DNA of 64,000 nt from an uncultured Chloroflexia bacterium. Its GTDB lineage: Bacteria > Chloroflexota > Anaerolineae > B4-G1 > SLSP01. Position numbers and translations under genes: made by a program. This document shows, one piece after another, positions 25,457-39,995 of the stretch. Position 1 is the stretch's first letter, and the number at the start of each line of letters is the position of its first letter. Location: contig CAVVUS010000014.1 of NCBI GenBank assembly GCA_963751345.1, positions 64,001-128,000 on the forward strand, in the 5' to 3' direction. The notes under the pieces are model-generated. The model did not search any database and was not told where the DNA came from. It saw only the letters and a program-made list of their open reading frames with translations.

Positions 25457-27115
25457 TTACGGCCTCCCACCCTGGAATCCGCCGCCATCAATCGGTCCCA
25501 CGAAGACGCCGCCACCACCGGGAAACGCCTGGTTGCCGGTCTGCGTCGACTGTGTGGTGGTCGAGCTCGAAGAGCTGCCCAGGCTAACCGCCTCACCTGC
25601 GGACAGGCCAGACGTGATCTCGGTATTCACGTAGTCCGATAGTCCAATCTCTACCTGTCGCATCTCGAGCGTGCCATCAGACTTCACCACGAACACCACG
25701 TGTTGGCCATTCCCCATACTGCGGATTGCTTCCACCGGTACGAGAACCACATTGTCAGCCTCGCCTGCGATGATGCTGATGTCGGCGTTCATATCGCCCA
25801 ACAGGGTCACATCCTGCGTACTCGTCAACGTAGCCCATGCCTGGACCGCCGGTGTGTTGCTCACCGTTACCAGTTGCGGGTCCACCTGATAGATCTGCCC
25901 GGAAAAGGTGAGATCGGGCAGCGCACTGAAAACGATGCTGACAGGGTTCCCGATTACGACACTGCTCATATCCGTCTCGTCAGCCCAGAACTCCACAACA
26001 GGGGCATCGAGATCAGCTAGCGAAATGGCCGTACCGCTTGCGGTCTCACCGGCTTTGAAGTTGACCGTCACGACGGTCCCGGAGAACGGCGCAACGATGA
26101 CCATGCCATCAGCCGCATCCTGGGCAGCGGCGGCGGTCAGCTTGGCCTGTTCGAGTGTTAGCTCGGCTCTGTTCTGCGCCACCGCCTGATCGCCGTCGCC
26201 CAGTTCGAGCTTCGCCTGCTGCAGCGCGAGCTCGGCCGACTTGACCGCGGCCTGTGCTGCCGCGATCTCATCCGCAGTGGGCGCTTCCTCAAGATTGGTC
26301 ACGGCGGCCTTGGCGCTCAAGACTTGGGCCCAAGTGCTCTGCACGTCGGCGCCCGAAGTGTCTACCATTGCCAGGTCGTAGTCAGCCTGCGCGATTTCAA
26401 GGTTCTGCTGTGCCCTGACAAGCGAGGCCGCTGCGGACTGCCGAGTCGTTTCAATGTCACGCTCCCAGTCCCGCTCCGGGTTCATCGCATCGGCATAAGA
26501 TTGCTGTGCACTATCAAGCGCTGAAATGGCCTGATCCAGACTGATACGAACAGAGGCATTCTGCTCGTCGACCATGCCTGCTTTCTTCGAGGCACTCTGG
26601 TAGGAGACCTGAGCGTTTGCGAGGGTCGCTTTCGCGGTTGCCAGCTCGGCAGAATCAGGGCTCCAGTTGACGAGCGCATCAAGTGCCTTTTGGGCCGTCG
26701 CGAGATCAACTTCTGCCTGTGCGACGCCGAGTTCAGCCTGCCCCTGCGCCAGATCGAGGGCGATCTGGGCATCAATCACAGCTTGCTGATCCTCGGCAAG
26801 CGTCTGCCGTGCCGCCGTATCGTCGGCACGAGCGAGTACATCCCCCTCTTGCACATGATCTCCGACTTTGACCAGCACCTCCTTTACCACGGCACTGGCA
26901 CTGAATGCCAGATCAGCCGTCTGCGAGGGGACCAGGGTTCCCGATCCTGTCGTTGTGATCGATATGTTTCCGATCGTCGCCGTCGCTGTGCGCACGGTCG
27001 CACCGGCATCTGCAGTCTGCTTTGGCATCAGCCAGAGCCGGTAGGCACCATATCCGCCACCGCCGAGGACGACGACTGCAACAATCGCAATCCAGAATGC
27101 CTTCTTACGCAGCAT
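25457..27115 (-). CDS. MacA-like periplasmic adaptor subunit with long coiled coil
   Basis: N-terminal TM, VLVKVGD.V..GDVLA and APFSGTV hairpin halves, VLVPVEAI. Confidence 0.88.
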   Translation of the reverse strand: MLRKKAFWIAIVAVVVLGGGGYGAYRLWLMPKQTADAGATVRTATATIGNISITTTGSGTLVPSQTADLAFSASAVVKEVLVKVGDHVQEGDVLARADDTAARQTLAEDQQAVIDAQIALDLAQGQAELGVAQAEVDLATAQKALDALVNWSPDSAELATAKATLANAQVSYQSASKKAGMVDEQNASVRISLDQAISALDSAQQSYADAMNPERDWERDIETTRQSAAASLVRAQQNLEIAQADYDLAMVDTSGADVQSTWAQVLSAKAAVTNLEEAPTADEIAAAQAAVKSAELALQQAKLELGDGDQAVAQNRAELTLEQAKLTAAAAQDAADGMVIVAPFSGTVVTVNFKAGETASGTAISLADLDAPVVEFWADETDMSSVVIGNPVSIVFSALPDLTFSGQIYQVDPQLVTVSNTPAVQAWATLTSTQDVTLLGDMNADISIIAGEADNVVLVPVEAIRSMGNGQHVVFVVKSDGTLEMRQVEIGLSDYVNTEITSGLSAGEAVSLGSSSSSTTTQSTQTGNQAFPGGGGVFVGPIDGGGFQGGRP

Positions 27116-27183
27116 GTACTCTCCTCCTAATCGAGCAATACCACAGGGAGCATTGTTACGGGAAATGACAATAGCCCCCTGGT

Positions 27184-27290
27184 CTGAGAAGTCTCGATGA
27201 ATAGGCTGAGAAATGGCTGAGCGTCCGAGCCCATCCTCTTAGATAACTCTCAGGATCCTCCCAGCCTCCTCTCAGAGAGCACGGTATAAT
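27184..27290. promoter_or_regulatory. Divergent promoter with back-to-back TCTCAG box arrays and TATAAT
   Basis: CTGAG(A/C) at 27184, 27206, 27217; TCTTAG 27237, TCTCAG 27248, TCCCAG 27259, TCTCAG 27270; TATAAT 27285-27290. Confidence 0.7.
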
Positions 27291-27340
27291 GAAAGTTGGC
27301 GTCACTCTATGTGTGTACCAAAGGCCGGAGGCAGTCACGT

Positions 27341-28018
27341 ATGGCGAAGGTGTTAGTGGTCGACGACGACGAAAGACTACTCAAGATGTTGCAGCGTACC
27401 CTCTCGTATGAAGGCTTCGACGTCATCACAGCCGGCGATGGGCTCGAGGCTTTGGCGCGGCTGGGCGAGCTGCCCCCCGACGTGATCATCCTGGATTGGA
27501 TGATGCCCCGGCTTGATGGCGTGGGTGTCCTCGAGGTCCTTAACATGGAGCACAATCAGACGCCGGTGCTGATGTTGACGGCACGTGACGCGGTCCAGTA
27601 CCGTGTGGAAGGATTGGAGCGAGGAGCAGACGACTATCTGGTCAAGCCGTTTGAGCCCATCGAGTTGATCGCCCGGGTCCGTGCGCTTCTGCGCCGTGTC
27701 GGCCAGGATACGCAGACCACATTGGTGTTCGACGACCTCAGTCTGGACCCATCGAGCCGCGAAGTCAGCCGGGGAACGCGCAAGTTCGAGTTGACGCCCA
27801 CTGAGTTTGATCTCCTGCATCTCTTCATGCGCCATCCACATCAGGTATTGGAGCGTGGGCAGATTCTGTCGCAGGTCTGGGGCTATAACTTCGCCGGCGA
27901 CGACAACATCATCGAAGTCTATGTCGGCTACCTCAGGAAGAAGACCGAAGCCGAGGGCGAATCACGGTTGATCCAGACCGTCCGCGGCATCGGATATGTG
28001 CTTCGGGAGCAGATTTAG
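27341..28018 (+). CDS. OmpR/PhoB-family response regulator (MprA-like)
   Basis: REC domain (ILDWMMP, ADDYLVKPF) plus wHTH (EVYVGYLRKK, IQTVRGIGY). Confidence 0.92.
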   Translation: MAKVLVVDDDERLLKMLQRTLSYEGFDVITAGDGLEALARLGELPPDVIILDWMMPRLDGVGVLEVLNMEHNQTPVLMLTARDAVQYRVEGLERGADDYLVKPFEPIELIARVRALLRRVGQDTQTTLVFDDLSLDPSSREVSRGTRKFELTPTEFDLLHLFMRHPHQVLERGQILSQVWGYNFAGDDNIIEVYVGYLRKKTEAEGESRLIQTVRGIGYVLREQI

Positions 28019-29538
28019 TGTCTATACGGCTTCGCTTAACCTTACTCTATAGTGCGATCCTCGCACTTACCTTGATTGCGTTCAGCACGGTGTTGTACGC
28101 GACGCAAGCGCGGTACACCCTGAACATCGTGAAACGTGATCTGGATTCCAATGCCAGGCAAGTAATGCTGGCGTGGACTCGCTTCCAGACAGCTTGGGAT
28201 GCACGCGGTATGCCGCCCCGGCAGGCACCGGTCTCTCCGGACGTCTCCTATGGCGAGCAGGCTCAACAGGCTCTTCAGCCACTCGTGAGGGGTGAGCTCG
28301 CCCGTGATTCGGTTCACCTTCTCGATGCTGGAGGAGAGGCACTGGCCCTATCGATGAACGATCAGAGCCCGACGCTGCCCATCAGTCAGGAAGGATTGAC
28401 AAAGCTTCAAGCCGGCAGCGCGTGGATGGAGATCAGCCAGGGGGAGGATTCGCGATGGCTGATCTTCAACCTCCCCGTCGTCACCTCGATGACACCGCAT
28501 GCGGACGGCAGTGTCACGCCGAACGTCATCGGGATTGTGCAGCTCGCCCGCTCCCTCGCGGATCGGGACCGTTCGCTGCACTCGATGGGCATCACCCTGG
28601 TCGTAGGGAGTCTCACCACGACCGTGCTGGCCTTTGGCGCGGGGTGGGTGCTCGCCGGAACGACACTCAAGCCCATCCAAAAGATCACGGAGACGGCCCA
28701 GGAGATCGGCCAGTCGCAGGATTTCTCATCCAGGGTCGAGCACGACGGGCCGAACGATGAGTTAGGGCGGCTGGCGACGACCATCAATAGTATGCTGGCC
28801 CGGCTGGAGGGCTCATATCAACAGCTCGCCCACGCGCTGGAGGTCCAGCGCGACTTCGTTGCGGACGTCTCCCACGAGCTCAGGACGCCCCTAACCACGG
28901 TCCGTGGCAATCTCGCGCTTATGAGACATGACCCGCCCCTGCCCGCGGATGAACAGGTGGAAATCCTGGACGATCTTATCGCCGAAAGTGCCCGACTGAG
29001 CCGTCTGGTCAGCGATCTTCTGACGTTGGCCCGCGCCGACGCCGGTCACCGGCTGCCGGTGGCGCCGGTTGAGGTCGAAGGCATCGTGGATGACGTATGC
29101 CGGCAGGCCAATCTGCTCGCACCTGACCGCGAGGTCACCTGCGATTTCGGGGCGCCATCACCAAGCATCGCGAACGAGGACGCCCTGAGACAGGTGCTCC
29201 TTATCCTTACGGACAACGCGATCAAACACGGCGAGGGTCCCATCCGAATCGCCACACGAGAGAACGACCATCATATCCGTATCAGCGTACAGGACAGCGG
29301 GCCCGGCATGCCCGAGGACCTACAAGCACGGGTCTTCGACCGCTTCTATCGCGGGGACGCTTCACGCTCGACGCCAGGCTTTGGCCTGGGACTCTCGATT
29401 GCCCGCAGCTTGACAGAGGCCCAGGAAGGCACGATTTCAATGGAGAGCCAGGCAGGGGTAGGAACCACCTTCATCGTGGAGCTTCCGCAGGCGGAAGGTA
29501 ACGTGACGAGTGAGGATCTGGTATTGCCGGATGACTGA
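28018..29538 (+). CDS. HAMP-domain sensor histidine kinase (MprB-like)
   Basis: Two TM segments, HAMP, SHELRTPLT, NAIKH, DSGPG, GFGLGLSI; overlaps the regulator stop codon. Confidence 0.92.
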   Translation: MSIRLRLTLLYSAILALTLIAFSTVLYATQARYTLNIVKRDLDSNARQVMLAWTRFQTAWDARGMPPRQAPVSPDVSYGEQAQQALQPLVRGELARDSVHLLDAGGEALALSMNDQSPTLPISQEGLTKLQAGSAWMEISQGEDSRWLIFNLPVVTSMTPHADGSVTPNVIGIVQLARSLADRDRSLHSMGITLVVGSLTTTVLAFGAGWVLAGTTLKPIQKITETAQEIGQSQDFSSRVEHDGPNDELGRLATTINSMLARLEGSYQQLAHALEVQRDFVADVSHELRTPLTTVRGNLALMRHDPPLPADEQVEILDDLIAESARLSRLVSDLLTLARADAGHRLPVAPVEVEGIVDDVCRQANLLAPDREVTCDFGAPSPSIANEDALRQVLLILTDNAIKHGEGPIRIATRENDHHIRISVQDSGPGMPEDLQARVFDRFYRGDASRSTPGFGLGLSIARSLTEAQEGTISMESQAGVGTTFIVELPQAEGNVTSEDLVLPDD

Positions 29539-29539
29539 C

Positions 29540-29585
29540 GAAAAGAAACGAGTGACCGGAAGCTGATCACTCGTTTCTCGTTTCC
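29540..29585. terminator. Hairpin between the convergent kinase and RNAP-like genes
   Basis: AGAAACGAGTGA ... TCACTCGTTTCT. Confidence 0.55.
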
Positions 29586-29595
29586 GATCGACACG

Positions 29596-32500
29596 TCAAT
29601 TGTCGTGGATTGGCACCCCCACCAGCATCCGGCTCTCCACGTCGACCAGCGGATCGACCTCACCGGCTGCCGCGGCCCGGGCGAAGACGAGGCCGGGGTA
29701 TTTTGCCCTCAACGCCCGCGTCAGCACGCTGAAGCTCTTGGTCACATTTCGCTCGCGGAAGGTCGCGCCCATCTGCTCCCACTGAGTCAAGATACCGGCC
29801 AGCCCCCGTCGCGCACCCGCGACGCAGGCGAACAACTCCTCAGGCGTCAACCCCTCGCTGTAGCCATGCCGCACGATGACAACACGGCCATGCTCGTCGA
29901 CCACGGGGCCGCGCCCCGCCACGAGCCACGCCATCTGCTCCAGTCCTGCGCCGCGCGCCTTGATCATCAGGATCTGCGGCCCAAGGTCGGCGGCCGTGGT
30001 GTCCGTCATGGCAGCTAACGCTTCTTGAACGGCCTCTCCATACATCTGCCACAACGCCGAATCCGTTGAGTCGGGCCGAGAGGGGAGCGGTGTGGTCTCC
30101 CCGACGAAGGGGCTCAGGGACGCGCCAGAGACTTTGACCGTCTCGAACCCACGCTGCATCAGTCGCTCGACAGCCAGCATCGCCGCACCCACGCTCTCCT
30201 CCCCCGCTCCCCTTGGAAGCAGCTTGGAGAGTGCGTCGGTCACGGTGGCAGCCGTGACAAAACCGCCGGAAGTGTTGACCGGCTGCCCGACGATCTCCGA
30301 GATCTCCGCCAGCCCCGCCGGATCGAGGCTCAGCTTCGCCAGCCCCCAGAGCGCATCCAGCGCGGGCACCAACGAGGCAAGCAGCCCGGGATCGCGCATC
30401 AGATGGCCGGCGACGGAGAGTCGCTCCCCGGCTTCCTGCTGGGCCGCTTCCGTGATAGGCAGGAAGACGGCGGCCTGGTCGCCGTCGAAGTCGGCATCCA
30501 ACCACCTGCACAGTGCAGGATGGAGGTGAAGCGCGTCATCCGGAACCCGGACGGGATGGAACGCCAGGAGTGCGGTGGGTGTCAGGGTCGGCGCGCGGTT
30601 GATGTAGACCCACGAGTGGGCCATCACGGCGTCAAGCACCTGCGAGGCGCGCTCGCTCCTGGCTGGGACGGCCTTCCCGTCGCCGGTCTCCCGTACGACG
30701 AGGGGACCAAAAAGCGCCCACGCCATCTCCTCGGGCATGCCGATCTGTTCCAGCGTCAGCTCGGCGGCGGGCGCCAGCACCGTGCGGGCACTGAAGAGCT
30801 CGCGGGCGCCGAGCCGTAACTGGACCGGCGTGAGGAGCGCGTCGAAGAGGGCACGGACGTGGCGTTCGAGCTGCGCGGTCGCGTCATCTACCAAGGTCTT
30901 GGGCGTCTGTGCGGCGAGCATACGCCTCACCCTGTCGTTGGCCTCGACCACCGCGCGATAGAGCCGCGGGAGCTCGTCCGACGCCTCCCACCAGCCTCCG
31001 GGCGGGAAGAGTACCTCCCTGAGGCCACCAACACGTTCCCTCTCGCCCGGATCGCCGATCTCGGTCAGGCGACGCTCGGGCAGCCACGGATGGGGGACCG
31101 GTCGCGCCAGCTTCAGAGCATCCTCCTGTGGCGGCGCGAAACGGAACGCCAGGCCGTTCTCCCCCAGCTCTGCCTCGATCCCCGCGACCCGAAGCCGGTC
31201 GGCCAGCTCCGCCAACAGTGGGGTCGGCGGAGGGGCCTGGGCCACAGGACCGGCGGCCAGCCGCTCTGCCAGCGTGCCGGCATCCTGCCCGCCCACTGCC
31301 GGGTGTTCAGATTCTCGCGGATGATCTCAAAGGCGCCCAGATCCCGCAGCATGAAGGTCTCCATCTCGCCCGTGCGCTGGCCCCATCGCTCTCCCGTCAG
31401 GACCAAGCGTCACGCAGCTTGTCCTTGGCGAGATGGTACAACCGCCCCCAGTAGACCCAGCCGACGGTGCTCGGCGCGTCGAGCGGCGGGCCATCCTTGC
31501 CCTGCGTGAGCGTCACCATGCCCGACTCGGGCAATCCGGCAGCGACCAGGCGCGCGCGAAGCTCATCCGCCGAAGGCGCACCAAAGGGCGGTACGATCGC
31601 CGGGTTCGCCTCGGCCTTCGCGACGCTGCCCAGGACCGCCTCGCGGATCTGTCCGAAGTTCATCCGCCGGTGCAGGTTGGCGAAGTTGAAGACCAGGTCG
31701 ACCGGCGTGCCATCGGGAAGATGCGGCATCCGGTCGTCGGGCAGGATCTGGCCGACCACCCCCTTCGTCCCGTGGCGATTGCTCATCTTGTCGCCGATCC
31801 GGAGCGCATAGGGGGTGTCGAACCGCCGCGCGCACGACTCGCTGACGACGATGGCATCCTCGTACGTCCCCGGCCCCCAGGAGACAAAGGCCGTGAGCAG
31901 GTTGCGACCGGCCCAGAAGTCCGGCGACAGCAGGGCGTCCGGCTCGTTGCCGGTCTGAACCCACGCGGGCTCCGGCATCTGCTGCACGATCCACTGCCTC
32001 AGCATATTCGCCCCCATCAGGATGCGGTTGGGATCGTCGTGCTCCAGCAGGGGGATCATCGACGCGGAGAGCCCCAACGTCGCCTCGGGGCGCTCGTCGA
32101 CGATGACCAGCCGCCCATCTCGGACGGTCGCGCCGACGGCGATGGTGAAGACGTGGCCCATGTTCGATCCCTCGGGCACCTCGAAGGGGCAGACGTAGCC
32201 GAGCTGTCCGGGGGCGATCACGTCGTGGGCCTCCGGGACCAGGAGTCGACGAAGGTGGGTGTAATATGAAAACCAGTTGGTCTCGTCAACCGGCTGCACG
32301 GTGACAAATCGCCCTTCCGTGCCGGCCATGAACTCGGCAACCCACGTGTCGAGGGGAAGCCACGCACGGGCCAACGACGGACATCCCAGGGCAAATCGGC
32401 AGGTGCGTGCCCCAGGCGCGCCGCGACGAAATCGTAGAGCTGTTCGCCGACGCAGCGAATCTCGGCCTGATCCAGCTCCGGGCGCGAGGCGGTAGGGATC

Positions 32501-32745
32501 ACCACCCTGCGCTGCCCACCGATCTCAAAGATACCCCGCTCGTCCGGCTGGGGCAGGTCAAAGGCCACGTCCAGTGCGTCGTCGTGTGCCCCCAAGGTAA
32601 CCGCCACCCGGCATTCGTAGACACCGGTCGACTCGACGGCATAGCTGAGCAGCGGCAGCCGCTCGGCAAGCAGCGCCGGCAGCCGCTCATTCAGGAACGT
32701 ATCGTATGAAGCTTTGTGCCAGGGTGTCGACACATCAATCGTCAT
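29596..32745 (-). CDS. Miniature fused RNA polymerase beta-beta'-like protein (~1050 aa; frameshifts near 32378, 31405 and 31298)
   Basis: In order: GIFEIGGQRRVV, IRCVGEQL, DETN...THLRR, VCPFEVPEGSNMG, IPLLEHDDPNRILMGANMLRQ, YEDAIVVSE, GDKMSNRHGTKGV, RMNFGQ, GQRTGEME (beta blocks); then LYRAVVEANDRV, NRAPTL, DADFDGDQ, GLTPEELF..GARRGL, AGEVDPL (beta' blocks). Confidence 0.9.
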
Positions 32746-33362
32746 CGTATTCCTCCTCCCTTATCCCCATCTTCTTCCCACTCACGTGCCAACTGTGCCC
32801 GGGCATAATGCAATCGCGACTTTACCGTCCCCTCGGGAATGTCCAGCGCGTCCGCCGCCTCCCCGAGACTCATCTCCAACTCGTAGACGAGCCGGAAAAC
32901 CCGACGCTTCTCCTCCGACAGCTTGTTGACGAGCTGGCGATACCTCGCGCGCTCCTCCGCCTGCTCGACGGCGGCCTCCGGCCCGAGAGAACCGGCATCC
33001 ACCATCCAGGCGGGCACGCGATTGTCGGCGTCGTCATCATCGTCGACGTCCGGGGGGATCTCCAACGGAAGCTCCCGCCGCCGCTGTACCGTGCGGAGAT
33101 GGTTGAGCGCCAGATTGGTCGCGATCCGGTAGAGCCACGCCTTGAACGTGCCCTCCCCCTGCCATTGGTCGGCCCGCATCCACACCCGCAGGAAAGTCTC
33201 CTGCACCACGTCGTATGCTGCAGCTTCATCGTGAACGATGTGGAGAAGGTAAAACCGCAGCGACGTAGCATAGCGATCGACAAGCACCTCGAACGCGTGC
33301 GAGTCGCGATCGAGAATGCTAGTCACCAGGTCACTGTCGGGTACGGGCGACGCGTCTTGCAT
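32742..33362 (-). CDS. ECF-type RNA polymerase sigma factor
   Basis: Region 2 DVVQETFLRVW..FKAWLYRIATN; region 4 EAADALDIPEGTVKSRLHYAR; the stop overlaps the next ATG (ATGA at 32745-32742). Confidence 0.93.
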   Translation of the reverse strand: MQDASPVPDSDLVTSILDRDSHAFEVLVDRYATSLRFYLLHIVHDEAAAYDVVQETFLRVWMRADQWQGEGTFKAWLYRIATNLALNHLRTVQRRRELPLEIPPDVDDDDDADNRVPAWMVDAGSLGPEAAVEQAEERARYRQLVNKLSEEKRRVFRLVYELEMSLGEAADALDIPEGTVKSRLHYARAQLAREWEEDGDKGGGIR

Positions 33363-33378
33363 GATGCCTCTACTATAC

Positions 33379-33405
33379 AAGACACCGCTGGGCGCAGGAA
33401 AGTTC
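33379..33405 (-). promoter_or_regulatory. ECF-type promoter GAACTT-N16-GTCTT upstream of the sigma gene
   Basis: Minus strand reads GAACTT tcctgcgcccagcggt GTCTT, 16 nt before the ATG. Confidence 0.65.
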
Positions 33406-33459
33406 ACTACCACTTGTGTCTCTTCCCAGACGGACTAGGATAAGCACCGAGAGGCGACC

Positions 33460-34974
33460 ATGAGTGAAAACGACCCGGCAAAGCCGGACACACATCCCAA
33501 CATCATCCTGATCATGACCGACCAGCAGCGCTTCGACACCATTGGTGCGTGGGGCTATGAGCATATGATCACGCCGGCGATTGACCGAATCGCGCGGAAC
33601 GGCGTCTCCTTCAGCCAAGCCTACGCCCCTGGGGCTACATGCGTCGCGTCGCGGGCCGCAATGTTCACCGGGATGTGGCCCCACACCACCGGGGTCTACA
33701 GCTTTGACCCGTGGGCCGACCACCGCAACTGGGTTCAAGATCTGAATGACGCAGGGTACTGGTGCGCGAGCATCGGCAAGATGCACTTCAGTCCACGCGA
33801 TGTGCCGGGTGGCTTTCACGAGCGGGTGATCGTAGAGAACCCCACGAACCTGACCCTGGCCAACGGGGGGGCTGACGATGATTGGGGCCGTTACCTGAGC
33901 CTGTACGGGCTCGAGCGCCCCAACGCCCGCAACCGGTCTGACCCCGACTGGCTCGCCAAGCATCAAGGCGTCCCCTGGCATCTCGAGGAACGCTTCCACA
34001 GCGATGTCTTCATCGGCAACTCCGCGGTGGCCTGGATCAATGGCCACCGCGGCGAGCGCCCGCTCTTTCTGCAAGTAGGCTTTACAGGGCCGCACGAGCC
34101 ATGGGATCCGCTGCCACGCCACTTTGCGCTCTACGAGGGTCGCGAGCTTCCCCCCGCGGTGTGGCGCGAAGGCGAACTCGGCGAGAAGCCGCCACAGCAA
34201 GCGCGTATCAAGGAGTTCCACGCGACCACGTGGCACGAGTCGCAGATCTCGCTCGATGGCGCCTCGCCCGAAGCTATCGCCGAAATGCGGCGCCACTACT
34301 ATGCCAAGATCACGACTGTCGACGAGCAGATCGGGCGGGTGCTGGACGCATTGGAAACTCGGGGTTACCTCGACGACAGCCTGGTCGTCTTCTGCTCCGA
34401 CCACGGCGAGATGCTGGGCGATCACAAAATGGCCTACAAATGGCTGATGTACGATCCTATCGTTCACGTACCGCTGATCATCTGGGATAATCGATCCGCT
34501 GCACGGACGGGCGAGGTGCACGATCTGGTATCGCTTCTGGACATTGGCCCCACCGTGTTACAGGCCGCCGGCATCGATGTCCCCACCTACTTTGAGGGGC
34601 GCTCTCTGCTTCCGTACTTAGAGGGCGATCCAGCCGAGCCGCATCCCTACATTTTCTGCGAGGACAACTACCAGGTGATGATGCGCGGCGCGAACCACAA
34701 ACTCGTCTATTACATTGGCCAGGAAGAGGGCGAGCTTTACGATCTGCAGGAAGATCCCTACGAGCTGACCAACCTGTGGGACGATCCTACGTACGAAGCC
34801 ACCAAGACCGGCCTGCTTCACGATCTGCTCGACTGGTTGACCAGTAGCGTCTACTGGAACGCCGGCTACCGGCGCACACGTTCCCGCCATACGCAAATGC
34901 GTTGGCCGGCCCGCGGCGATGCCAACTTGCACGGTCGTTCTTCAGCGGATAATGGGCACACGGAGCGATGGTGA
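33460..34974 (+). CDS. Formylglycine-dependent sulfatase
   Basis: PNIILIMTDQQR, CVASRAAMFTG, GKMH, SDHGEMLGDH, ELYDLQEDPYE. Confidence 0.9.
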   Translation: MSENDPAKPDTHPNIILIMTDQQRFDTIGAWGYEHMITPAIDRIARNGVSFSQAYAPGATCVASRAAMFTGMWPHTTGVYSFDPWADHRNWVQDLNDAGYWCASIGKMHFSPRDVPGGFHERVIVENPTNLTLANGGADDDWGRYLSLYGLERPNARNRSDPDWLAKHQGVPWHLEERFHSDVFIGNSAVAWINGHRGERPLFLQVGFTGPHEPWDPLPRHFALYEGRELPPAVWREGELGEKPPQQARIKEFHATTWHESQISLDGASPEAIAEMRRHYYAKITTVDEQIGRVLDALETRGYLDDSLVVFCSDHGEMLGDHKMAYKWLMYDPIVHVPLIIWDNRSAARTGEVHDLVSLLDIGPTVLQAAGIDVPTYFEGRSLLPYLEGDPAEPHPYIFCEDNYQVMMRGANHKLVYYIGQEEGELYDLQEDPYELTNLWDDPTYEATKTGLLHDLLDWLTSSVYWNAGYRRTRSRHTQMRWPARGDANLHGRSSADNGHTERW

Positions 34975-35040
34975 GGCCGCGCCACATCTCTCCGGTGTTC
35001 GCATCGGTTCAAGTCCACGCACCTATATAGGAGGCTAGCA

Positions 35041-37369
35041 ATGAGATACACTTATGACCGTCTGTCCGTATCCGACAACCGAGAGCCTGTCGACTACGTT
35101 GACACCAATATCGGCACGCTTTCGTACAAGACATGGTCGACCTCACCGGCCGTCCAGCTTCCCCATGGGATGATCGAGATCGACACCTACACGACGCCCG
35201 GCATCGGCGATAAGTATCTGGCAGACAAAATCTACGGTTTCACAACCGGGGCCTTCGCCCTGATGCCCACCGTCGGGAAGCCCGCGCTCTCGCCCGCTGA
35301 GAACGCCTCGGAGTACGATCACGATTTGGAGCTCGCTACGCCTTACCTCTACGCTGTGCTGTTGGAGGATAGTGGGATCGAGGTCGCGTACACCGCGAGC
35401 GAGCGGGCGGCCTACTTCCGCTTCGCCTTCCCGGAGACGGAGACCGGCAATGTCGTGGTCTACCTCGCAGGTGACGCCGAAGCGGCGTTCAACAACGATG
35501 GGAGTCTGACCGGCTCGCAGACCTTCTTCCGGACCAAGACGTACTTCCACATCGAGTTTGGCCAGGCTCCCGGCACGACACAGGTCACCGCGCTTGAGGA
35601 AGAGGCCGGGGCCGGTCGCGGCTGGCGCCGCCTTCGACCGTCGTTGGCCGCCATCGCGAGCTTCGGTGTGGCAGGGGGGAAGGAGGTTGAGGTCCGTGCA
35701 GGCATCTCCTTTATCAGCGCGGATCAGGCCCGCCGGAATCTGCACAGCGAGATCACGGGTTGGGACTTCGAGTTAACCAAGCGCCAGGCCCGCGAGAGCT
35801 GGAACACCGTGCTCCAGCGCATCCGAGTTGAAGGCGGCACGGAGGATCAGAAGACCAGCTTCTATACGGCGATGTATCGCGATCTGCAGCGCATGAAGAA
35901 CATCACCGAGGACGGCAAGTACTACAGTGGGTTCGATGGCGAGGTGCACGACGCCGGCGACCAGGATTTCTACAACGTCGATCAGCCCTGGGATACCTAT
36001 CGCTGTGCCCGCCCTCTGCAGTTCATCCTCGAACCCGAGCGCGTGAACGACATGCTGCAATCCTACACACGGATGGCCGAGCAGTTGGGCTGGATGCCGA
36101 TCACGCCTCACATCAGCGGCGAGCGCGCCACGATGGTCGGCCGGCACATCACGGCGATCATCACCGATGGATACAACAAGGGCTTCCGCGGCTTCGACCT
36201 GGAGACCGCTTACGCCGGCATGCGGGCGAGTGCGCTGGACAGAACCATCCTGCCCTGGGTAAAGGGGCCGGCGACAGAGCTCGATCGCGCTTACGACGAA
36301 CTCGGCTACTATCCCGCACTGCCCACCCGCGAGGATCAGAAGGTGGACGATCCTGACGAATGGCGGGCCAACGTCGAGAGGCATCATCATGTCAGAGATG
36401 CCGTACCAGATCACGTGGCTACCTGAGATCGGCGTAGACGAATGGGTGCCTGAGGTCGACCGCTGGCACCGGCGCCAATCAGTGTCGGTGACGCTGGAGA
36501 ACGGCTATGACGACTGGTGTCTTGCCCAGCTCGCCGAGGCCCTGGGCAAGGACGACGATGCCGAACACTTCATGTGGCGGGCCGCCGGCTACCGCAACCT
36601 CTTCAACCCGGCCATCGGCTTCATGGCGCCCAAGGACGCCGATGGCACCTGGGTCGAGCCGTACCATCCGATCCTGTCAGGCGGCTTCGCCGGTGAGGCT
36701 TTCTTCGCGGAGATGAATGGGTGGACCTACACGTTCCACGTCCAGCACGACGTCCAGGGCTTGATCGATCTGATGGGCTCGCGAGAGGCCTTCGTCGAGA
36801 AGCTGAACGCGCTCTTCACCGAGCAATACATCATGGACAAACCCGCTTTCTGGGGCCAATTCCCTGATGCATCGGGCCTGATCGGGCAGTACAGCCAGGG
36901 CAACGAGCCTAGCTTCCACGTGCCCTATCTCTACAACTACGCCGGCGCCCCGTGGCGGACACAGCGTCGCGTGCGGGATATCATGAAACTTTGGTATAAC
37001 GCGGGGCCGATGGGGCTCTGCGGCGACGATGACATCGGAGCGCTCTCGTCGTGGTACGTCTTCAGCGCGATGGGCTTCTACCCGACCTGCCCGGGACGCC
37101 CCACCTACGACCTCGGTAGCCCGCTCTTCGAGACAACGACCATCAGCATGCCGGAGGGCAAGACCTTCACGATCCACGCCAAGGGCGTGTCGGACCGCAA
37201 CAAGTACATCCAGTCCGCAACGCTCAACGGCGAGCCGTGGGATCGCCCGTGGCTGCGGCACAGCGACCTGGCCAACGGCGGCGTACTGGAACTGGTGATG
37301 GGCCCGCGCCCGAACAAGGAGTGGGGCAGCGATCCCTCCTCGGCGCCCCCGTCGATGTCGACGGACTAG
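35041..37369 (+). CDS. GH92 alpha-mannosidase family protein (frameshift near 36379)
   Basis: FYTAMY, WDTYR, SVTLE..YDDW, QGNEPSFH, GDDDIGALSSWYVFSAMGFYP across ORFs 35041-36426 and 36389-37369. Confidence 0.88.
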
Positions 37370-38167: not shown

Positions 38168-38941
38168 CTAGGAAGTGCCCTTCCAGACATACTCGCCCAA
38201 TGCCGCCGACAGCGGGTCGGCGTCCTCCGCGCAGAACCCGAAGTGTAGCCGGCGGCGCCAACCCTCGGCATAGGTGAAGCGGCCCGACATCTCACCTACC
38301 TGGTGGCTCAGGACCTCCATCATATCGAGATAGGAGTCCATCCCCTGGCTCTCGTCCAACCACACTTTCTGGCTCTGGTGGTGCGCCAACATCGCCCGCT
38401 TGGTAGGCAGCACGCCGGTGATGTCGACGAAGATCCCCGGGACGATCGGCTGACCCAGCGGATCGCAGTTGCCGTGAGGTTGAGCGTGGTAGACCGTGAC
38501 CTCTTGGTCAACCGGCGGCACCGGCGGATTGGTGGGGTAGTTAGGCATACCACGCGCGAATGCCGCCGTCACCGCCAGCCGTGCCGCATTCTGGTGATCC
38601 TCCATGTAGTCAACGGGCGATAGCACCAGCAGGATCTCGGGTGCCACCTCGCGCATCACCGCAGCCAGGCGCGCCAGCGTCGCCGGCTCATAGAAGATAG
38701 CCATATCCTCCACAAGGCTATCGTGATGGATCGCCCCGATGAAGGCCGCCGCCGCTCTCGATTCCTCGCGCCGGACGCGGATGATCTCCTCGCGACTATG
38801 GTGCAGCGTTCCGCAGGAGCCGTTGGCGATCGTCATCGTGTGCAGCTCATAGCCCGCCCGTCCTAGAAGGATGAGGGTACCGGCCATGAAAAACTCGATA
38901 TCGTCAGGGTGCGCGGAGACCGCGAAAGCGCGTTTGACCAT
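38168..38941 (-). CDS. PIG-L/LmbE family N-deacetylase
   Basis: AHPDDIE, RREE, DYMEDH, HQSQ. Confidence 0.88.
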
Positions 38942-39869
38942 CAGTGCATCTCCGCTTCGCAGGAGCCGATGCCGCCCCGGAGGAAGTTGAACTGGACGTT
39001 CGGGTGATCCGCCAATAACGACATCGGGCACCGCGCTGTCGGGCAGCCGCTTGCCAGATCATCAGCGTCGTGAGGCGCATGCCGAAGGGGTTGTCGTGCG
39101 TCCCGGCCTGCCAGATCGAGACCTTCTCCGCCTTCCAGGTCTCCGCAGGGCCGACCGTGAGCGCCTGGCTCGGCACGTTCTGCACCACGCCGCCGCCCGA
39201 GGTGCGGGCATTCTGGATCAGCGTGATGGGGTGCAGGTCGACGACGCGGGTCTCCAGCTTGCGATATTCGGCAGGAGTGGGCGGGCGGTCAACGTACGGC
39301 CCCTCACGGCGCAGCGGATCGTTAAAGGCCCAGTGCTTGACCTCGCCCTGCCCGCCCTGCATCACGACGCAGCGCGCCGCATCCCAACTCGCCTTGTACT
39401 CGGCGAGATCGACGGCAGGGAAGTGCAGGTTCTCCGCAGGCATCCGCAGATCGGGCCGGATACGATCGAAGCAGAGCGCCATATCGGCACGGCGGAAACT
39501 GAGGGGGTGATCGATCGTGACTTCCTTGCCGTCGACGACCCACTCATCCATGCCCCAGAAGTGCGCGTAACGCAGGTCGAGCTCCAGCGCATTGACCAGC
39601 CGCGCGACCAGCGGCAACTGCTCTGTCGGCCCGATCGGGCCACAGATACCCGCGGGCGTCTCGTCGGTCGCCTGTCGCCAGGCATCGATGTACTCCAGTG
39701 CCTCGGCGAGGTAGAAGTCCTCCAACGTGTCGTAGAAAACCACGCGGAATCCGGGCCGGCTCAACGCCAGCATATCCTCCGGCGTCAGCCTGGCAGCGTC
39801 GTCCAGGATCTCCCGATCCAGCGTCGTGTAGTCCCACCAATCCGGCGCCACTTTGCTCAAGGGTCGCAT
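38941..39869 (-). CDS. Glucosamine-6-phosphate deaminase/isomerase-like protein (two 1-nt indels near the 3' end)
   Basis: [26 protein letters not shown]; corrected end [23 protein letters not shown]...EMH* overlaps the next ATG. Confidence 0.8.
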
Positions 39870-39892
39870 CTGTGCCTCCTCTCGCGGAAAAG

Positions 39893-39995
39893 AGGATAGG
39901 GGATAAGGAAATAAGGGATAGGGGGGCTGGGTATTGTCCGGCCCATCCTGTCTCCCGTATCCCTTGGTTCCCTACTCCCTATCCCTCTCCTTACT
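39893..39995. repeat. Short degenerate tandem repeats in inverted arrangement
   Basis: GGATAGGGGATAAGGAAATAAGGGATAGG ... TATCCCTTGGTTCCCTACTCCCTATCC; resembles 2661-2727. Confidence 0.55.

Follow-up and report, generated by a model that had tools for sequence, protein, structure and literature searches.

To our knowledge, the taught view is that each bacterium has one RNA polymerase core, the known exceptions being phage or plasmid enzymes and extra copies of rpoB. The non-virion polymerases of the giant phages phiKZ and AR9 carry a sigma-like fifth subunit. These two enzymes are reduced derivatives of beta and beta' without alpha and omega, and the available parts of two reports describe them as phage-encoded, highly divergent assemblies of four or five polypeptides that depend on a dedicated promoter-specificity subunit (PMC4666361, PMC5449584). 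YonO, from the B. subtilis prophage SPbeta, is a single chain of ~100 kDa homologous to the multisubunit polymerases; the available part of its description gives it only very distant homology to the cellular enzymes, reports no linked sigma factor and leaves open whether it recognizes promoters by itself or with further factors (PMC5467207). K2ORF6p/K2ORF7p of the yeast cytoplasmic linear elements are described, in excerpts, as an Rpb2::Rpb1-like fusion of ~980 aa (PMC2919709, PMC6211774) that keeps the active-site regions with shortened spacing, has reduced lid, rudder and rim helices, retains almost nothing of the clamp and no coiled-coil, needs a second small subunit and has a viral affinity and a capping enzyme (PMC6211774). 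The accessible parts of the literature, including PMC2919709, PMC5467207, PMC7281927, PMC7826278, PMC6211774 and PMC7481178, hold no description of the family presented below or of a sigma-linked fused polymerase, and Iyer and Aravind (2012) and Iyer et al. (2003) could bear on its novelty. The main text of PMC7826278, as excerpted, names neither rpoB, rpoC, Chloroflexi nor polymerase subunits, and its supplementary tables of ECF groups, contexts and promoters could list this sigma group.

The window, a stretch of 64,000 nucleotides from an uncultured Chloroflexia bacterium, carries at 29596-33406 on the minus strand a module of an ECF-type sigma factor gene and a gene for a single-chain beta-beta' polymerase of ~1050 aa. 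Our best reading of this module is a minimal sigma-dependent auxiliary RNA polymerase, and we put at roughly 0.5 the probability that it is intact in the organism and encodes a minimal, self-switched holoenzyme. With canonical RpoB and RpoC the family shares the order of conserved blocks, the catalytic motifs, the clamp helices, the bridge helix and region H, and the C-terminal end of its beta part leads into the N-terminal end of beta', an arrangement also found in the natural full-length rpoBC fusions of Helicobacter and Wolbachia, but its gene stands apart from the rpoB and rpoC loci and comes with an ECF sigma factor of its own. Like YonO it lacks a trigger loop, whereas it matches Rpb2_6 at 1e-35 to 1e-40, YonO being set apart by its description, and it is chromosomal with a linked sigma gene, unlike the prophage-borne enzyme. 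Like the yeast enzyme it is a fusion that retains the active-site regions at reduced spacing; in contrast to that enzyme it keeps the clamp coiled-coil, is of bacterial type, extends through region H as a single polypeptide and has a linked sigma factor. Set against the phiKZ and AR9 enzymes, whose dependence on a specificity subunit it may share, the family has a single polypeptide closely related to cellular beta and beta', a chromosomal location and a bona fide ECF sigma factor.

The first-pass annotation had joined four minus-strand ORFs at 32218-32745, 31397-32374, 31113-31406 and 29596-31296 (ORF1 to ORF4) into one gene of ~1050 codons for a reduced single-chain beta-beta' polymerase outside an rpoBC locus, with all three catalytic Asp and both Lys, and this description stands. 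The ORF check of the window returned all four ORFs, an intact homolog (P0001, 1056 aa) proved colinear by tblastn with four frame pieces, which is far beyond chance, every RpoB-like and RpoC-like motif then named lies where it had been placed, the five residues are all present in the window copy, and Pfam, profile alignment and motifs support the architecture:

32383-32745, minus strand: polymerase piece A, family-specific N-terminal domain, P0001 aa 1-121 (tblastn, 32745-32383)
31415-32377, minus strand: piece B, beta-like fork/Rif region, Rpb2_3 and the first double-psi barrel with GDKMSNRHGTKG, P0001 aa 123-443 (Pfam, tblastn at 32377-31415, profile, motifs)
31299-31394, minus strand: piece C, GQRTGEME block (beta switch-3/clamp part), P0001 aa 450-481 (tblastn at 31394-31299, profile, motifs)
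29596-31296, minus strand: piece D, beta C-terminus joined to the beta'-like half, stop codon included, P0001 aa 487-1054 (Pfam, tblastn at 31284-29608, alignment)
32156-32191, minus strand: motif CPFEVPEGSNMG
31994-32044, minus strand: motif EHDDPNRILMGANMLRQ
31853-31867, minus strand: motif YED
31760-31795, minus strand: motif GDKMSNRHGTKG of the beta-type barrel
31649-31666, minus strand: motif RMNFGQ
31359-31382, minus strand: motif GQRTGEME
30832-30972, minus strand: clamp helices in piece D (alignment)
30583-30600, minus strand: motif NRAPTL
30478-30498, minus strand: motif DADFDGD
29800-29817, minus strand: motif GARRGL, bridge helix
29617-29685, minus strand: region H in piece D (alignment)

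ORF2 matched the Pfam domains RNA_pol_Rpb2_6 (5.5e-40) and Rpb2_3 (5.1e-08), ORF4 matched Rpb1_2 (3.7e-20) and, weakly, Rpb1_1, ORF3 gave a weak match to Rpb2_7 under the cut-off (0.0078), and ORF1 had no Pfam match. Piece A weakly resembles the N-terminal beta segment (a weak profile match to beta 92-157), and in the census its domain always occupies residues 1 to ~120 of proteins of ~980-1100 aa or of fragments. Both hallmarks of the two-barrel superfamily, the Rpb2_6-type barrel lysines and the NADFDGD-type triad in the Rpb1_2 barrel, are present. The first-pass annotation had asked for canonical genes to be confirmed elsewhere, and they exist, with rpoB on contig C10 and rpoC on contig C11 of the same genome, apart from the gene described here.

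Intact homologs of ~1000 aa with conserved catalytic residues had been named as what this reading would hinge on, and both were found. Among 8000 scored candidates, 430 proteins reached E<=1e-3. The best 120 of these are all intact at 993-1067 aa, each has both PF00562 and PF00623, and they align to the 566-aa query with 45-67% identity over 96-99% of its length. Rpb2_3, Rpb2_6 and Rpb1_2 are joined in one chain in the intact homologs, with Rpb2_6 at 1.8e-34 to 1.8e-39 on three of them. Across 182 full-length family proteins the three acidic triad residues are kept in 172, as DFDGD in 167 and D[YH]DGD in five, with a triad Asp lost in a few members (NFDGD in two, DFDGN in one); D754, D756 and D758 are invariant in a 24-sequence alignment. 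The second Lys is absent from 19/182, including the closest homologs, which have TMG instead, and most members keep GDKxxxRHGxKG, the bridge helix and the fork motifs. Judged from sequence, the window copy belongs to a real but unnamed family of bacterial RNA polymerases that consist of a single chain and reach about a third of normal size; its proteins are at present annotated as 'hypothetical protein'.

Aligned with solved bacterial structures, the family profile matched beta at E 6.8e-67 and beta' at E 7.8e-44, and what it keeps is the fork, both double-psi barrels, the catalytic motifs, the clamp helices, the bridge helix and region H, while the beta lobe region, the flap, the beta' rudder, the trigger loop and the jaw are missing from the profile alignment, as are Cys clusters for zinc. 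The first-pass annotation had not mentioned the absence of trigger loop, flap and rudder. In the beta' half the alignable parts are the clamp helices, switch 2/NRAPTL, the NADFDGD barrel, the F-loop with the bridge helix, and region H. At the flap, as we take the skipped part of beta to be, ~240 residues are replaced by fewer than 10: profile positions 261-297 fall on beta 758-794 and 306-479 on beta 931-1119 (8i23_C), and the beta matches in a Pseudomonas chain are 793-829 and 1073-1144. Between bridge helix and region H, ~340 beta' residues have no counterpart, residues 438-513 of the window's beta' half aligning to beta' 722-800 and 536-561 to 1142-1167 (8i23_D), which is the trigger loop gap. 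The structure model of P0001 (pLDDT 82.6, pTM 0.76) shows the coiled-coil as a helical hairpin at 592-638 (H592-612/H617-638) and a bridge helix (H976-1008) followed by only three short helices, and Foldseek returned bacterial and plastid beta and beta' as its best matches. Against the NCBIfam equivalogs the scores stay far under the cut-offs (TIGR02013 rpoB, 171.6 bits vs 801.15; TIGR02386 rpoC, 119.1 bits vs 963.5), and ~1050 aa compare with ~2770 aa for rpoB plus rpoC of this genome, about 38%.

The polymerase frame changes three times in the window (around 32377-32382, 31405-31414 and 31296-31301), and at each site the relatives' short-read contigs and a syntenic genome (G002) differ from it by indels (-2, -2, +1) that restore a single frame:

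32377-32382, minus strand: frame break 1, two extra single bases in the window; contigs of two runs lack one base at 32376 or 32377 and one at 32382, and both extra bases are also missing from G002
31405-31414, minus strand: frame break 2, two extra single bases in the window; relatives' contigs lack one base at 31405 and one at 31414, and against G002 the extra bases are at 31406 and 31414
31296-31301, minus strand: frame break 3, one base missing in the window; relatives' contigs insert a G behind 31296, and against G002 the window is one base short at 31301

The contigs come from four runs of one soil study that hold 5-13% of the sampled words, and they represent relatives 90-99% alike, with gaps, e.g., at 31084-31215. 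That the frameshifts are real mutations of a dispensable accessory gene decaying in this strain is improbable to us, although three net breaks in 3.1 kb somewhat exceed the background between the window and G002 (about one per 3 kb), G002 is itself broken elsewhere, at window-equivalent 30361, the sequences compared belong to relatives, and the rarity and patchiness of the module, detailed below, imply that loss is common. Against decay, the essential canonical rpoB of the same assembly is cut to an open frame of 624 aa (1119-1332 aa in 12/12 relatives) by the same kind of change, a single extra non-homopolymer base at C10:145966, and the neighboring GH92 gene is split too, with Pfam profile positions 1-193 and 188-464 in two frames. 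Moreover, dN/dS against G002, a measure the first-pass annotation had proposed, is low in every piece (0.19, 0.16, 0.07, 0.20 and 0.22, with wrong-frame controls of 1.5-2.5), including those downstream of each break, and tblastn with P0001 found no in-frame stops or large deletions within the pieces. The pieces are under purifying selection. On the strength of the frame-restoring indels, the broken essential rpoB, the split GH92 gene and the low dN/dS, the three frameshifts are probably assembly errors and the gene is probably intact in the organism, which the first-pass annotation had not recognized. Programmed frameshifting was rejected because intact homologs keep a single frame at all three sites, and misassembly of two loci because G002 is syntenic across the whole module.

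The translationally coupled sigma gene, conserved with the polymerase, had been missed by that annotation. Its stop codon overlaps the polymerase ATG (ATGA), and its start follows from the orthologue alignment and the position of the promoter:

33402-33406, minus strand: -35-like element TGAAC of an ECF-type promoter, read from the sequence
33381-33386, minus strand: -10-like element GGTGTC, 15 nt past the -35 element, read from the sequence
33367-33374, minus strand: third conserved block, here AGTAGAGG, consensus AGTGGAg in 28 promoters, 6 nt past the -10 element
32742-33362, minus strand: ECF-type sigma factor gene, likely start ATG at 33362 (Pfam, NCBIfam, orthologue alignment)

The product has regions 2 and 4 only, in about 200 aa (the ECF/group 4 layout), and matches Sigma70_r2 (2.2e-16), Sigma70_r4_2 (5.3e-13) and Sigma70_ECF (3e-06) in Pfam and sigma70-ECF (2.5e-31) in NCBIfam, TIGR02937 reaching 108.5 bits vs a cut-off of 42.9; no NCBIfam equivalog scored above its cut-off. 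An orthologue lies directly upstream on the same strand in 31/32 loci from several phyla, the lone exception (L020) being a locus without upstream DNA, and the stop/start overlap is frequent across loci. The sigma alignment has a mean column identity of 52% and a linker with a conserved motif. Pairwise identities of sigma and polymerase correlate with r 0.91 over 231 pairs and 0.30 in the 208 pairs below 60% identity, which is compatible with joint inheritance and is no evidence of contact.

ECF operons usually, not always, carry a co-transcribed anti-sigma gene. Here it is absent, and the polymerase is the only conserved neighbor, with flanks that differ between loci. If the protein were mainly a regulator and not a polymerase, a decoy core holding sigma by its clamp helices instead of an anti-sigma factor, it would occupy the usual anti-sigma position, and the retained helices and the catalytic motif changes in some members would suit this role; we regard the role as very improbable, since a catalytic scaffold of 1050 aa under purifying selection would be a costly sigma binder and the triad, GDKxxxRHGxKG, bridge helix and fork motifs are kept as widely as given above.

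For the preferred holoenzyme, the clamp helices are the proposed contact. Residues 97-152 of the window's protein align to Mtb beta' 329-383, the docking site of sigma region 2; in canonical enzymes the clamp helices bind NusG as well, so that their retention is no proof of sigma binding. In canonical holoenzymes the flap-tip helix positions sigma region 4, and the absence of flap and flap-tip helix speaks against a holoenzyme. Complex prediction for sigma and polymerase scored 0.52 (best of three controls 0.00), past a mark reached by 58/80 solved complexes and 2/110 mismatched pairs, scores of 0.60 or less among the passes belonging to only 7 of the 80 solved complexes and to both passing mismatches. 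The runs share at least 92% of contacts, with partner pLDDT of at least 71; sigma-beta' complexes have already been solved, so that the pass may reflect memory, and the prediction hints weakly that sigma binds the small polymerase.

The promoter pattern TGAAC-N15 (one N14)-[GA][GT]TGTC stands upstream of the sigma gene in 28/29 loci, with the wider consensus GCGGTGTC, and an AAC-type -35 with a GTC-type -10 is the usual ECF pattern, which would fit ECF autoregulation. The third block holds 0.6-0.9 bits per position over the 28 promoters and is kept even where the start codon is ~100 nt further on; it may correspond to the region of the start site, to the ribosome binding site or to the two together. 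Scored with a weight matrix, the window's own promoter reached 31.7 bits and the runner-up in the 5.4 Mb genome 20.1; 13 sites there attain at least 16 bits and only the own site lies above 20.1, and the strict pattern has five matches there, the own promoter and four others; neither scan gave a second strong promoter in this genome. In five other genomes the strict pattern was no commoner than its reversed control (5 vs 2, 2 vs 1, 5 vs 10 and 3 vs 1 in four of them), save for a repeat family in the fifth, G044 (12 vs 0), where 10/12 matches lie in identical copies of one repeat and the excess is taken as a chance match multiplied by it. Sigma-70 promoter and terminator scans gave nothing above shuffled expectation, and Rfam gave no match at E<=1 in 27000-36000.

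The lack of a target promoter beyond the own operon in the scanned genomes also speaks against the holoenzyme, and it is what one would expect if the operon itself were the regulon of a sigma factor that works only with the host core, leaving the small polymerase as sole effector, active without sigma on special templates (ends, nicks, single strands or RNA) or by its own promoter recognition like the single-chain phage two-barrel enzymes. The ordinary ECF geometry of the promoter means that host core and this sigma could read it, the missing flap-tip site for region 4 and the low complex score point the same way, and promoter recognition by YonO, alone or with factors, is left open in the available part of its description (PMC5467207). 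We nevertheless consider this alternative rather unlikely: the clamp helices, where sigma mainly docks, are retained and conserved here and lost in the yeast element enzyme (PMC6211774, in excerpt), strict one-to-one adjacency with frequent stop/start overlap across phyla is more what one expects of a stoichiometric partner than of a regulator alone, and no anti-sigma gene occurs where ECF operons usually have one.

The module was found in 5/41 genomes, the window's own included, and in 2/400 genomes of the phylum, but not in phage and plasmid collections; tblastn of P0001 against 50,697 phage records hit 33, all rpoB/rpoC-like and none covering 80% of the query, with no Bacillus phage among the ten organism names listed for them. 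Ten neighboring genes in ten loci have ordinary metabolic or regulatory functions, PADLOC had no match for the polymerase and one insignificant match for sigma, and PHROGs gave nothing beyond generic beta-like phage families and two families whose function is unknown. The module is rare, patchy and chromosomal.

In the mechanism that we favor, beta would have been fused to beta' and cut down to the catalytic core, the chain folding into a two-barrel active center with the two beta Lys, the DFDGD Mg site and the bridge helix, and polymerizing RNA without a trigger loop. It would recruit its own sigma through the retained beta' clamp helices to form a minimal holoenzyme, which would read the TGAAC-N15-GGTGTC promoter and transcribe its own operon, closing a self-reinforcing loop. 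More tentatively, at somewhat less than even odds, we envisage a second, autonomous chromosomal transcription system, a one-chain core of ~115 kDa derived from beta and beta' that does without alpha and omega and without flap and trigger loop, together with a dedicated ECF sigma factor, which would be the smallest known cellular-type sigma-dependent holoenzyme, self-amplifying and spread between phyla as a two-gene cassette.

A family that can be aligned block by block to the cellular enzyme at ~38% of its size shows which parts of beta and beta' nature can drop while the active center and the sigma docking helices are kept. If the sigma pairing is physical, the module would offer a natural minimal model for sigma-dependent initiation, a test of the real need for flap, trigger loop and alpha-dependent assembly, and a compact orthogonal transcription module for synthetic biology. 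Should the autonomous system prove true, its role may be that of a backup or stress polymerase on which inhibitors of the host enzyme have no effect, or that of producing a special RNA.

Four minus-strand open reading frames, at 32218-32745 (ORF1), 31397-32374 (ORF2), 31113-31406 (ORF3) and 29596-31296 (ORF4), occupy the positions that the first-pass annotation had assigned to them, and all the motifs it had quoted were found where it had placed them. Pfam profiles recognized RNA_pol_Rpb2_6 (5.5e-40) and Rpb2_3 in ORF2, and Rpb1_2 (3.7e-20) with part of Rpb1_1 in ORF4; ORF3 matched the start of Rpb2_7 weakly (0.0078, under the cut-off), and ORF1 had no Pfam match. An intact homologue of 1056 aa, P0001, from a metagenome-assembled Anaerolineae genome, is colinear with the window in tblastn along the following segments.

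Segments of the window matched by P0001 (tblastn)
32745-32383, minus strand, residues 1-121
32377-31415, minus strand, residues 123-443
31394-31299, minus strand, residues 450-481
31284-29608, minus strand, residues 487-1054

Judged by sequence, the four frames are one gene, interrupted by three frame changes. Canonical rpoB and rpoC are present elsewhere in the genome, on contigs C10 and C11, so that this gene is an extra copy, in keeping with the earlier proposal of a second polymerase; the canonical genes are themselves not adjacent, since both lie deep within these large contigs.

The proposal that the gene encodes a reduced, single-chain beta-beta' protein is supported by a search for intact homologues, restricted to longer proteins, in which 430 of 8000 scored candidates matched at E<=1e-3: the best 120 of the 430 are all 993-1067 aa long, carry Rpb2_6 and Rpb1_2 on one chain and, where annotated at all, are called 'hypothetical protein'. 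The N-terminal 121 residues correspond to no Pfam family; in a search of 1.84 billion cluster representatives, 180 clusters matched them at E<=1e-3, of which 124 did so at 1e-10, and the match was invariably N-terminal (residues 1 to about 120), whether the protein had about 980-1100 aa or was a shorter fragment. The family falls under no NCBIfam model: the rpoB equivalog scores 171.6 bits against a cut-off of 801 and that of rpoC 119.1 against 963. By its profile matches the protein belongs to the superfamily of two-barrel polymerases and is of bacterial type (1.9e-50 and 1.4e-34 with the bacterial rpoB and rpoC models vs 3.3e-22 and 2.9e-11 with the archaeal ones), departing from a canonical core subunit in length, flap and trigger loop. 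Clusters of the ESM Atlas also include other single proteins, of 1221-1787 aa, with Rpb2_6 and Rpb1_2, mostly called hypothetical, which suggests that further fused beta-beta' families exist.

Full relatives were found at 31 loci in one-per-species genomes, every one of them metagenome-assembled: Poribacteria (9), Armatimonadota including Fimbriimonadaceae (5), Anaerolineae/Anaerolineales (4), Chloroflexia (2), Chloroflexota (2), Phycisphaerae/Phycisphaeraceae (2), Brocadiia/Brocadiaceae (2), and one each in Caldilineaceae, Ktedonobacteraceae, Aquidulcis, Latescibacterota and one other bacterium. The family is rare, being present in 5 of 41 genomes of the window's relatives (its own genome counted) and in 2 of 400 further genomes sampled evenly across the phylum. 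None of 50,697 phage records and none of 72,556 plasmid records had a match over 80% of the protein, the matches present being to ordinary rpoB/rpoC. Ten flanking genes in ten loci encode ordinary oxidoreductases, hydrolases, acetyltransferases, methyltransferases, regulators and similar proteins.

The three frameshifts of the window copy are probably assembly errors, and four lines of evidence agree on this. Logan contigs spanning the junctions, from four soil runs of one study and 90-99% identical to the window, have one base fewer at 32376 or 32377 and one fewer at 32382 (two runs), one fewer at 31405 and one fewer at 31414, and an extra G behind 31296; given the codon phases 0, 1, 2 and 0 of the four pieces, these changes of -2, -2 and +1 restore a single frame. 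G002, a genome of the same genus that is syntenic with the window across 36 kb at 85-96% identity, differs from it in the same way at all three break sites, and has an extra base of its own at the equivalent of 30361, where the window reads in frame. The assembly also breaks other genes. Canonical rpoB (C10:143861-147767) falls into two frames, of 723 and 624 aa; its open frame is only 624 aa long, vs 1119-1332 aa in 12 of 12 relatives. The cause is one extra base relative to G002 at C10:145966, outside homopolymers. The mini polymerase gene has changes of this kind too, and such a split in an essential gene points to indel errors made by the assembly. A glycoside hydrolase gene 2.3 kb upstream is broken as well, positions 1-193 and 188-464 of the Pfam profile lying in different frames.

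35041-37369, plus strand, GH92 glycoside hydrolase, in overlapping frames 34975-36426 and 36263-37369, with a one-base difference from G002 at 36376

Overall, the window and G002 differ by about one net frame-changing indel per 3 kb, some of the errors being in G002. Finally, dN/dS between the two is 0.19, 0.16, 0.07, 0.20 and 0.22 across successive pieces of the polymerase and 0.22 for the sigma factor gene that precedes it, with 0.05-0.10 for three neighbouring genes and 1.5-2.5 for wrong-frame controls. A real pseudogene in the window's strain, which the breaks taken at face value would mean, has about one chance in eight.

Comparison with G002 also brought out other features of the region. 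At 38168-39971 on the minus strand, two frames overlap, one carrying a PIG-L domain (38168-39058) and one that no Pfam profile matches (38904-39971); they contain single extra bases at 39028 and 39056 and are possibly another split gene. Values of dS are lower in the sigma-polymerase module (29596-33362; 0.13-0.41) than in flanking genes (0.63-0.74), which could be due to recent exchange or, the stretch being rich in GC (0.686 at 30-32 kb), to codon bias. Homology with G002 breaks off at 33407, immediately beside the sigma promoter's -35 element, and the sulfatase-like gene beyond it (33460-34974, within 33408-35039) has no counterpart there.

A profile of 24 members could be aligned to solved bacterial beta (E 6.8e-67) and beta' (7.8e-44). 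From beta, the family keeps a short N-terminal segment (a weak match), the fork/rifampicin-region block with ETPEGPNIG, the IPFLEHDDANR block, the YED loop, the barrel with GDKxxxRHGxKG, switch 3 and the extreme C-terminus, and lacks approximately residues 157-448 (the lobe) as well as a second stretch, the flap and its tip helix, which spans 794-931 in the Clostridium enzyme and 830-1072 when numbered as in E. coli. The beta C-terminus joins the N-terminal strand of beta' directly. From beta' there remain the lid-proximal loop, the end of switch 2, NRAPTL and the barrel with (N/D)ADFDGD; in the translated product of 29596-31296, the clamp coiled-coil (residues 97-152, equivalent to 329-383 of Mtb beta'), the F-loop and bridge helix (438-513, equivalent to 722-800 of the solved chain 8i23_D) and region H (536-561, equivalent to 1142-1167 of the 1188 residues of 8i23_D) are also kept. 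The alignment to beta' showed no counterpart of the rudder segment or of the roughly 340 residues holding the trigger loop and jaw, and no Cys clusters occur among the conserved columns. A confident AlphaFold model of P0001 (pLDDT 82.6, pTM 0.76) has a helical hairpin at 592-638 and, at 976-1008, a bridge helix of 33 residues; Foldseek matched it best to beta and beta' of bacteria and plastids (E 1e-22 to 1e-18), with giant-virus enzymes matching less strongly.

All three catalytic Asp and both Lys that had been reported for the window copy are indeed there. Among the 182 family proteins of 950-1150 aa (out of 269), the aspartate motif is DFDGD in 167, DYDGD or DHDGD in five, NFDGD in two and DFDGN in one, seven being unplaceable by pattern. 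The second beta lysine is kept as xKG in 149 of the 182 and replaced in 19, including the window's closest homologues, which read TMG with Met in its place; 14 fall outside the pattern. Changes at catalytic positions were seen in P0100, P0106, P0188, P0001 and P0002, and NANFDGD occurs in two clusters, of which one comprises 68 sequences, and DFDGN in one. The mini beta-beta' chain is a conserved, selected and catalytically equipped protein.

Directly upstream lies the gene of an ECF sigma factor (32742-33362, minus strand), which the first-pass annotation had not mentioned and whose stop codon overlaps the polymerase start (ATGA). When all open reading frames around the 31 related loci and the window were clustered, the only conserved neighbour was the orthologue of this sigma (about 200 aa, 41-54% identical to that of the window), which 31 of 32 loci have on the same strand and directly upstream; the one locus without it, L020, is a record that starts 53 nt before the polymerase gene, and at L035 the sigma lies 3 kb from it. 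The linker between ECF sigma regions 2 and 4 is usually variable. Here it is conserved and acidic, with a P-x-W-M-(I/V)-D motif (columns ~150-160 of the orthologue alignment).

In 28 of 29 loci the sigma gene is preceded by TGAAC, a spacer of 15 nt (14 in one locus) and [GA][GT]TGTC, the remaining locus reading CGAAC; 6 nt past the -10 element comes a third block, AGTGGAg, which is also conserved. In the window these elements were read directly.

33406-33402, minus strand, TGAAC
33386-33381, minus strand, GGTGTC
33374-33367, minus strand, third conserved block

A weight matrix built from 28 promoter sites scores 31.7 bits here and 20.1 at the next best site of the 5.4-Mb genome, itself the top of a continuum of 12 background matches between 16 and 20.1. 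In five other carrier genomes the strict pattern was about as frequent as its reversed control, one repeat family aside. That repeat, in the carrier genome G044 (L103, L117, L120, L123-L128), is about 1.1-1.3 kb long, has at least 10 near-identical copies and contains a 26-nt stretch fitting the strict pattern, which we assume to be a chance match multiplied by the repeat. Since neither search points to another site, the sigma's only clear target is its own operon.

The observation of the first-pass annotation is confirmed and its reading supported, with the breaks best explained as assembly errors, and the finding goes beyond what it described, being a conserved cassette of two genes, one for an ECF sigma and the other for a minimal RNA polymerase in one chain. 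In the giant phages, a reduced core is paired with a specificity subunit in the non-virion enzymes, in outline a resemblance to the present pair. YonO, the yeast linear-element enzyme and the enzymes of phage P23-45 and crAss are likewise reduced single chains, and they are described as highly divergent and virus- or plasmid-borne. The clamp coiled-coil is lost in the yeast linear-element enzyme (PMC6211774), whereas the mini polymerase family keeps it. In the literature searched, no description was found of a chromosomal, sigma-linked, fused mini polymerase.

The pairing with a dedicated ECF sigma is obligatory at the genomic level, and a conserved ECF-type promoter precedes the pair. On the likeliest reading the chain would be an active RNA polymerase that dispenses with the trigger loop, a property reported for other reduced two-barrel enzymes, and would bind the sigma through its kept clamp helices, the principal docking site of sigma region 2 in the cellular enzyme. 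Complex prediction for the beta'-like half with the sigma gives this weak support (score 0.52; best of three controls 0.00), and the score may reflect likeness and not binding, because sigma-beta' complexes have already been solved. Agreement between runs covers at least 92% of contacts, with partner pLDDT of at least 71. Of 80 solved complexes 58 reached the mark used, as did 2 of 110 mismatches; those that reached it with a score of 0.60 or less were only 7 of the 80 complexes and both passing mismatches. In the main rival reading the sigma serves only to turn the operon on, together with the host enzyme, and the small polymerase acts by itself on some template; it holds this place because two things speak against a holoenzyme with the small polymerase, namely that the flap-tip site for sigma region 4 is absent from it and that the promoter has ordinary ECF geometry, which the host core could serve. 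No anti-sigma is visible in the module, and besides the sigma the operon's only product is the small polymerase. Whether the sigma works in a holoenzyme with the small polymerase or with the host core, the loop would be self-reinforcing.
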